DNA from: Desulfatibacillaceae bacterium
Lineage (GTDB): Bacteria; Desulfobacterota; Desulfobacteria; Desulfobacterales; Desulfatibacillaceae
DNA: 24,000 nucleotides
NCBI GenBank assembly: GCA_046542385.1
Contig: JBKHBM010000003.1
Coordinates: 59,896 to 83,895, forward strand
Reading direction: 5' to 3'
Shown here: positions 15,647-15,916 of the stretch, piece by piece
Position numbering within the stretch: position 1 is the first letter of the stretch
Layout of the letters: each line of letters begins with the position of its first letter
Notes under the pieces: model-generated
What the model was told of the DNA's origin: nothing
What the model saw: only the letters and a program-made list of their open reading frames with translations
Database searches by the model: none
Made by a program: the position numbers and the translations under genes

Positions 15647-15916
15647 ATGCTGTCGGACGAACAACGGGACGCATACAAGGCGTTTTTCGACACGGCCACG
15701 GACCCGGCGGTGCTGGGCGGAAAAACCACCTTCCTGGTGCAGTTGGCCGCGGCGATGGCCATGGGATGCCAGCCTTGAACCGAGCATTTCCTCGGCGTGG
15801 CCGGGGAAAAGGGAGTGAGTGAGCAGGAGATTGCCGCCACGCTGGCCGCCGTCATGGCCGTGTCCGCTGGACGGGTCCGCGCCCAGTTCCGGGAGGCCGC
15901 AAAGGCGGTGGAATGA
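15647..15916 (+). CDS. AhpD/carboxymuconolactone-decarboxylase-like small redox protein, probable selenoprotein (in-frame UGA at 15776-15778)
   Basis: ATG 15647 with GGAGG at 5 nt spacing. The frame reads ...LVQLAAAMAMGCQP-TGA-TEHFLGVAGEKGVSEQEIAATLAAVMAVSAGRVRAQFREAAKAVE-TGA. The TGA sits where the CMD-family C-x-x-C-x-x-H motif has its second Cys, giving C-Q-P-U-T-E-H. The downstream 46 codons stay open and continue the CMD fold pattern. Confidence 0.65.

Follow-up and report, generated by a model that had tools for sequence, protein, structure and literature searches.

A probable AhpD/CMD-type selenoprotein gene located downstream of hgcAB in a Desulfatibacillaceae bacterium

The region analyzed is a stretch of 24,000 nt (hereafter the window) from contig JBKHBM010000003.1 of a Desulfatibacillaceae bacterium. 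A same-strand arsR-hgcA-hgcB cluster found in this region ends with a small gene, separated by 119 nt from hgcB, which on comparative sequence evidence very probably encodes a genuine selenoprotein of the AhpD/CMD family, featuring a CxxU motif (U, selenocysteine, Sec). Coordinates of genes and elements are listed in Table 1. HgcA and HgcB score above the cut-offs of the NF040863 and NF040864 models, and the upstream location of the two genes on the same strand, as the size of the gap, had been correctly given in a first-pass annotation of this DNA, made from sequence alone. No terminator-like or promoter-like site turned up in the 119-nt gap, which is a weak test. The frame of the small gene starts at ATG 15647, is preceded at a distance of 5 nt by a GGAGG motif, and reaches the TGA at 15776–15778 after 43 sense codons, as initially reported; 45 additional sense codons lead to the TGA at 15914–15916, the closing triplet having been counted earlier as the 46th codon. 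The joined translation is MLSDEQRDAYKAFFDTATDPAVLGGKTTFLVQLAAAMAMGCQP-[TGA]-TEHFLGVAGEKGVSEQEIAATLAAVMAVSAGRVRAQFREAAKAVE, the junction running from ...AAAMAMGCQP across the TGA into TEHFLGVAGEKGVSEQEIAATLAAVMAVSAGRVRAQFREAAKAVE and the final stop.

Where the two overlap, the window matches contig CAZNQU010000011.1 of the metagenome-assembled genome (MAG) GCA_964575315.1 (locus L001) at 100% identity. The deposited protein (P0001, 99 aa) starts within hgcB, in another frame context, and runs as far as the Sec TGA (L001 10001–10300, corresponding to window 15479–15778), and the GenBank call for the selenoprotein gene is wrong. Homologues are mostly split in public protein sets into pieces of 43 and roughly 52 aa.

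Table 1. Genes and sequence elements at the hgcAB-selenoprotein locus (positions refer to the window)
Feature	Position	Strand	Remarks
ArsR/SmtB-family regulator gene	13635–13937	+	first gene of the cluster; Pfam HTH_20 and HTH_5; corresponds to L001 8157–8459
hgcA, corrinoid mercury-methylation protein	13965–15182	+	NF040863, 416.9 bits (cut-off 275)
hgcB, 2x[4Fe-4S] ferredoxin with C-terminal Cys-Cys, stop TGA	15240–15527	+	NF040864, 115.6 bits (cut-off 99)
Shine-Dalgarno sequence GGAGG	15637–15641	+	5 nt ahead of ATG 15647
Predicted 89-residue AhpD/CMD-fold selenoprotein, C41-Q-P-U44-T-E-H47, coding sequence	15647–15916	+	
UGA, predicted Sec codon, residue 44	15776–15778	+	TGA in about 74, TGC in 6 of 80 loci at this column
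Predicted SECIS hairpin	15787–15809	+	5' arm 15787–15796 (core 15790–15796), loop GUG 15797–15799
Predicted SECIS hairpin, 3' arm	15800–15809 (core 15800–15806)	+	window fold and 75 TGA homologues
PduO-type ATP:cob(I)alamin adenosyltransferase	15928–16491	-	PF01923; convergent, end 11 nt past the selenoprotein stop

The open frame past the TGA is, taken alone, weak evidence, as the chance that a random stretch of 46 codons is free of stops at 65% G+C was calculated to be about 30%. Used alone as query against 5.8 billion proteins, the downstream half matches the C-terminal fragments of homologues (E=9e-8). The G+C content at the three codon positions is 0.63/0.47/0.81 in the upstream and 0.78/0.49/0.80 in the downstream half, the same coding pattern, which is also that of hgcA and hgcB. 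The conservation of the downstream codons among relatives, a point raised in the initial proposal, is borne out by this match, by the aligned family sequence and by the G+C pattern. The gene might otherwise be regarded as a pseudogene or a truncated gene, harbored by an organism unable to insert Sec and making either a 43-residue peptide or nothing. The GenBank annotation, which ends at the TGA, agrees with a gene of this sort; the 45 codons beyond the TGA, which retain both family sequence and coding pattern, do not.

Homologues were searched by phmmer in 1.84 billion representative sequences, using as query a homologous protein, P0002. The 124 matches include dozens of fragments starting immediately past the TGA (MEHYLGVAK...), more than a dozen ending immediately ahead of it (...GCYP), and full-length relatives reading GCYPCMEHYLG. 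One genome per GTDB species was also scanned with a 5-sequence alignment as query. The 80 best loci, a set to which the genome of the window does not belong, are distributed among Desulfobacterota, Acidobacteriota, Fidelibacterota, Gemmatimonadota, Chloroflexota, Ignavibacteria and other groups. Conservation extends to either side of the Sec column, which is occupied by TGA in about 74 species and by TGC in 6, a 74:6 ratio of Sec to Cys forms which is inflated, because the stretch forming the hairpin (see below) encodes one of the two scan patterns, EHFLG[VG]A..., and this pattern favours Sec forms. The Sec/Cys pairing surmised from the window alone is found in nature at this very column, Cys being encoded by TGC in the six loci and present in many full-length homologues.

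The TGA could in principle be reassigned, or read through as Trp, Cys or Gly instead of Sec. Trp is indeed found at the Sec column in five JGI calls (P0002, P0005, P0041, P0075 and P0111), but most likely the gene caller translated TGA as Trp, and the choice of code by the caller is the simplest explanation of these residues. Homologues lacking TGA have Cys at the column, never a Trp encoded by TGG. TGA is an ordinary stop in the window, where it terminates hgcA, hgcB, rsmD and lysR, and the coupling of a hairpin to the TGA state is what marks SelB-dependent decoding. Altogether, decoding of the triplet as a residue other than Sec is extremely improbable.

The selenocysteine insertion sequence (SECIS) was analyzed in 75 distinct TGA sequences, which align without gaps (columns are counted from the U of UGA, taken as 1). 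A 7-bp hairpin is formed by columns 15–21 and 25–31, 98.7% of 525 cells being paired. Pairing drops to 17–59% of the cells when the 3' arm is shifted by 1–3 columns, and neither the observed pairing nor the observed covariation was reached in any of 500 shuffles. Compensatory double changes occur at five of the seven pairs (e.g., C-G to U-A, n=22; U-A to C-G, n=10). In the loop (G22 U23 G24 in the window) G22 is invariant, and U23 is found in at least 90% of the sequences. The same hairpin is returned, unaided, by RNAalifold. Of the 75 sequences, 69 have GGC as the Gly codon lying in the stem, whereas the four third bases are about equally used in the Gly codon at columns 58–60. The hairpin is missing in 5/6 TGC homologues, which feature at these positions the residues LGQGEK, or similar, in place of LGVAKE; the sixth, L082, retains part of it.

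The stem found in the window is 10 bp long and exceeds the family core. Folding of the window sequence alone is uninformative (z-scores of -0.4 and -0.8), and the element is recognized only through comparative analysis; RNA folding, recommended by the first-pass annotation, did yield the same hairpin both in the window fold and in the alignment of the 75 homologues. Bacterial SECIS elements have been described as stem-loops which follow the UGA and bear a small, G-containing loop at the apex (PMC1088965), and the predicted hairpin fits this description. The two elements originally put forward have to be replaced by the hairpin at 15787–15809, with its loop at 15797–15799. Both are present in the window, neither is conserved: the hairpin at 15780–15795 exists, but one of its pairs is kept in only 4% of the homologues, and in the pairing at 15794–15843 three of eight pairs are kept in less than 50% of them; the latter would, in addition, compete with the conserved hairpin. 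No Rfam family is found at the gathering threshold anywhere in the window, and a permissive Rfam search of the 15700–15920 interval gave one match, at chance level.

The protein matches the Pfam CMD domain (PF02627) with 39.9 bits (cut-off 23) when U is written as C, residues 9–86 aligning to positions 6–83 of the 84 of the profile, and the AhpD/CMD-like identity first assigned is supported by this score. A profile of 19 family members was compared to solved structures. The best match is 3bey (E=1.5e-12), the CxxC of which falls on C41/U44, and the same two residues align with the CxxC of 7y4r. Among the homologues aligned, C41 never varies, and at least 90% have C at position 44. The AlphaFold model of P0002, which is 44–48% identical (predicted local distance difference test score, 96.5), is made of four helices, with the redox motif located at the N-terminal end of helix 42–54. 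The model superimposes on 3bey with template modeling (TM) scores of 0.74–0.85 and a root-mean-square deviation of 1.1–1.3 Å, and its top 45 matches in the PDB are all CMD/AhpD structures. An all-helical CMD fold is strongly supported for the window protein by this proxy model.

The motif of the AhpD literature is the CxxCxxxH proton relay. The window protein had been described as carrying a C-x-x-C-x-x-H motif, with TGA replacing the second Cys: the TGA does lie in the second-Cys column, whereas the histidine spacing differs, His47 being located 3 residues past Sec (U-T-E-H), and the histidine of 3bey 4 residues past the second Cys, one column later in the HMMER alignment. The deviation from the canonical motif is slight.

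No NCBIfam model is matched at its cut-off by the window protein or by typical family members. For both, the best matches are the AhpD domains of MduS (NF045649; 61 bits for the window protein) and ArsM_AhpD_UU (NF041537; 51 bits); a weaker match is TIGR04169, an arsenosugar-associated peroxidase-like protein. Cysteines are found in the C-terminal tail of 23/82 members (..SCDC, ..SCSG, ..GGGCCG, ..GCGGC; e.g., L011, L014, L021, L050 and L059), three of the five hgcAB-linked ones described below included. The tails are reminiscent of the Cys-Cys tail of HgcB.

Some observations weigh against Sec insertion, in addition to the inflated ratio of Sec to Cys forms mentioned above. No tRNA-Sec was detected in the window, the readable stretch being about 24 kb of a single 69-kb contig of GCA_964575315.1, or in 30 loci examined. 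In the whole window a scan for in-frame TGA triplets with coding-like flanks spotted only this gene and a trivial same-frame case at rsmD/coaD. Most HgcA proteins have a Cys-Sec motif (PCUGP; bioRxiv 10.1101/2022.07.06.499078); the N-terminal extension of the window HgcA has Cys-Cys instead (AACCGPP; nt 14097–14102, codons 45–46 of hgcA), and there is therefore no second selenoprotein in the readable part of the genome. The missing tRNA-Sec and the Cys-Cys form of HgcA are also what one would expect if the gene were decayed. Yet a Cys-Cys HgcA coexists with the TGA gene also in L011, a deltaproteobacterial MAG. Among the other loci in which the gene follows hgcAB, the HgcA motif reads PC-TGA-GP in L014, L021 and L039, L014 thus having Sec in both genes, and HgcA lacks an extension of this type in L072. 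The hairpin of the window is intact, longer than the family core, and has the conserved G-U loop; TGA predominates at the column among the sampled loci, and is not a private mutation. A pseudogene is, on these grounds, very unlikely, and the selenoprotein remains the preferred reading. The explanation taken as a whole, in which the identity of the protein is combined with the redox role discussed below, is also held to be likely, with good confidence.

CxxU selenoprotein families with AhpD-like or CMD domains have been predicted since 2005 (Zhang & Gladyshev, PMC1088965, PMC2398784; review PMC13188914). Like the window protein, members of these families belong to PF02627, have Sec where CxxC has its second Cys, and have Cys homologues; like the window gene, their genes carry a SECIS with a small, G-containing apical loop. 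Unlike the family described here, they were established on marine reads, which gave no gene context. The GCYP-U-MEHYLGVA subfamily may or may not coincide with their "CMD domain-containing" or "AhpD-like 2" family.

Fusions of AhpD domains to ArsM or to other methyltransferases are also on record, as stated in a review citing Haft & Tolstoy 2025 (PMC13188914). MduS (NF045649) and the arsenite methyltransferase-AhpD protein (NF041537) share with the window family both the CxxU motif and the association with an S-adenosylmethionine (SAM) methyltransferase. The window protein differs in being a stand-alone protein, translated from its own Shine-Dalgarno sequence and ATG, which lacks a methyltransferase domain, matches only the AhpD part, stays below the whole-protein cut-offs of 380 and 510 bits, and has as partner a corrinoid enzyme, HgcAB. 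The GSU3128 family (NF041047, "distant AhpD homolog", an 84-aa model) also consists of small, single-domain CxxU proteins. It is a different family, since the window protein scores 28.7 bits and typical members 27–39 bits against a cut-off of 110.

Among proteins of solved structure, Mycobacterium tuberculosis AhpD (1knc, 1gu9) has the same fold core, with CxxC at the N-terminus of a helix close to Glu and His. Unlike the window protein, AhpD is about 175 aa long and trimeric, has two Cys residues, and works with AhpC/lipoamide as partner; the structural match is weak (TM 0.43–0.61). The closest solved relative by both sequence and fold is O27018 of Methanothermobacter (3bey), which has the same size and an aligned CxxC. 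Together with 1vke, 1p8c and RclX (7y4r), 3bey is one of the hexameric CMD proteins of about 100 aa. Proteins of the 3bey type are all Cys forms of unknown or antioxidant function, in which His is found 4, not 3, residues past the second Cys.

Selenoproteins encoded in operons of the same type as that of the window, in which Sec lies beside Cys and takes part in organometal chemistry, are HgcA (PCUGP), selenoprotein forms of HgcB and proteins of the SAO system (Haft & Gwadz, bioRxiv 10.1101/2022.07.06.499078). Their folds are unrelated, and they feature a CU dipeptide in place of CxxU; an AhpD/CMD gene is not mentioned there. In the literature searched, no AhpD/CMD gene is described after hgcB, and a pairing with hgcAB occurs only in the list of one review.

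The window HgcA and HgcB were searched by tblastn in the 80 family loci. Besides the window, hgcA and hgcB are found directly upstream of the gene, on the same strand and in the same order, in five loci: L011, L014, L021 and L039, the last three from Geobacter/Geobacteraceae, and L072, a MAG labelled Cytophagia. The distance from the hgcB stop to the start of the gene is 39 nt in L011, 36 in L014, 22 in L021, 40 in L039 and 213 in L072; a GGAGG-like motif precedes the gene in all five. The hgcAB-linked members are scattered, and do not form a single clade, in a neighbour-joining tree based on about 80 aligned residues, the resolution of which is low. In the reverse test the 80 best metagenomic HgcA loci were inspected, 56 of which have at least 450 nt after hgcB. 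Linkage to hgcAB is a recurrent but minority arrangement. The location beside hgcAB, to which importance had been attached at the outset, is real and recurrent, and at the same time rare.

Linkage to arsM is more common, arsM being adjacent, on the same strand, in 14/80 loci. Four of the adjacent arsM genes were compared to NF008823, and score 333–371 bits against a cut-off of 263. In L026 (9990–10003) and L036 (1556–1569) the arsM stop is separated by 3 nt from the family gene, the Shine-Dalgarno sequence of which is located inside arsM, an arrangement which suggests translational coupling. A fusion of arsM to the AhpD gene through a second Sec can be dismissed in both loci: because the intervening stop is TAA, the two genes are separate, although tightly coupled. 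Further SAM methyltransferases, of generic type, are neighbours of the gene in L002/L003, L023, L026, L036, L043, L051, L054 and L077. In L026, L036, L043 and L054 the gene is followed by a second methyltransferase of this type.

Other neighbours recur. A same-strand gene resembling dimethylarginine dimethylaminohydrolase (DDAH; Pfam ADI) lies upstream in 10 Desulfobacterales MAGs (L008, L015, L017, L018, L022, L030, L031, L041, L062 and L073). The DDAH/arginine-deiminase-superfamily label was individually checked for L008 only, which scores 246 bits against a cut-off of 450. Permeases of the ArsP type or similar to SO_0444/SaoE, and SBF-family (Acr3-type) transporters, are also found repeatedly. 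In the hgcAB-linked L072, a tandem-rhodanese protein, which resembles 3-mercaptopyruvate sulfurtransferase and ExtH and stays under both cut-offs, is encoded at 7137–8063, 7 nt after the selenoprotein gene. In L014, a Geobacter MAG, an open reading frame located just upstream of hgcA (about 8154–8330) ends with two Cys-Cys pairs (...AGCCGEGHDKNIACCK, followed by the stop); this end may be the tail of a metal-sensing regulator.

ArsR-like regulators upstream of hgcAB are on record (bioRxiv 10.1101/2022.10.17.512643). In the window, the arsR gene is preceded by a gene-poor region of 1.2 kb (12416–13634), which separates it from a methyl-accepting chemotaxis protein gene and contains short open reading frames only. 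The G+C content is 0.51 at 12601–13200, against about 0.65 elsewhere, and a promoter-like site is found at 13578–13607. On the opposite side, the PduO-type adenosyltransferase is a corrinoid-handling gene adjoining the unit which includes the corrinoid protein gene hgcA, and L081 has a homologue at a distance of about 3 kb from the family gene. The gene is regarded as context only, and is not demonstrated to be part of the hgcAB/selenoprotein unit.

The CxxC of AhpD works as a thiol-disulfide oxidoreductase. By analogy, the window protein, translated from its own Shine-Dalgarno sequence as the last product of the arsR-hgcA-hgcB cluster, would cycle between a selenol/thiol and a selenenylsulfide form. 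The UGA is very probably decoded as Sec under the direction of the small hairpin, which begins 11–14 nt after the UGA and has its G-U-containing triloop 21 nt downstream of it, and the predicted active site, C41-x-x-U44, lies where helix 3 begins, Glu46 and His47 being adjacent. The genomic context suggests that the protein may serve the metal(loid)-methylating enzyme encoded beside it, in either of two ways, which are not mutually exclusive. In one, it would be a reductant, acting on the catalytic cysteines of ArsM, on the HgcA tail (Cys-Cys or Cys-Sec) or on the Cys-Cys tail of HgcB. In the other, the Cys-Sec pair might bind Hg(II), MeHg+ (methylmercury) or As(III), and pass the metal(loid) to or from the enzyme. 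In the mechanism outlined for HgcAB, Hg has been proposed to come as Hg(SR)2 and to go as MeHgSR (PMC11588087), and a binding and transfer role would match the entry and exit step left open for this enzyme. It would also fit the co-location of hgcAB and ars genes, which is documented and unexplained (PMC7438021; bioRxiv 10.1101/2022.10.17.512643).

The main rival on function is that the protein is a genuine AhpD-like selenoprotein performing a general antioxidant or disulfide-reductase housekeeping task, its position after hgcB being incidental or due to a shared regulation of the ArsR type in response to stress, with no role in methylation. The chances of this explanation are rated as about even. 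Several data speak for it, and against a role tied to HgcAB. The family gene was found in 0/56 metagenomic hgcAB loci having room after hgcB. Most family members have unrelated neighbours (DDAH-like genes, Hsp33, ABC transporters), the genes flanking about 70% of the family loci having nothing to do with methylation. The 119-nt gap of the window is larger than the gaps found in four of the five other linked loci, the nearest solved relatives are annotated as CMD proteins of the antioxidant type, and the C-terminal Cys tail, a metal-binding tail, is missing from the window copy. Incidental placement fits poorly, in contrast, with the occurrence of hgcAB immediately upstream in five scattered branches of the family tree and in the window, four of the gaps being 22–40 nt; with the frequency at which arsM adjoins the gene, sometimes 3 nt off; with the size of both counts, which are far above the approximately 0.1 adjacencies estimated by chance; and with the presence of the same domain fused to methyltransferases in MduS and ArsM_AhpD_UU. 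A functional coupling of the selenoprotein to HgcAB in this organism is possible, if rather doubtful. That the Cys-x-x-Sec family is dedicated to metal(loid) methylation as an accessory factor common to ArsM and HgcAB, a selenol-based carrier or reductase which delivers Hg(II) or As(III), removes the methylated product, or re-reduces the Cys/Sec pairs of the enzymes, is a somewhat bolder claim, and is considered unlikely.

The finding is the correct call of a mis-annotated selenoprotein gene, CxxU selenoproteins of the AhpD/CMD type being themselves already known. It contributes a well-supported SECIS and, as a modestly new context, a recurrent, minority linkage to hgcAB which parallels the stronger linkage to arsM. 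The family is invisible to routine analyses of hgcAB neighbourhoods, because protein databases mostly hold the two halves of its members. As the arrangement is rare among hgcAB loci, the gene is not a general requirement for Hg methylation. The route by which Hg(II) reaches HgcAB and the exit of methylmercury are open questions (PMC11588087). A Cys-Sec protein repeatedly found beside both arsM and hgcAB is a tangible and testable candidate for what connects the two systems, and the same arrangement found in Geobacter relatives offers a place to test it. If the family were indeed a dedicated accessory factor, the protein would be a third component modulating methylmercury production in the minority of methylators which carry the gene after hgcB.

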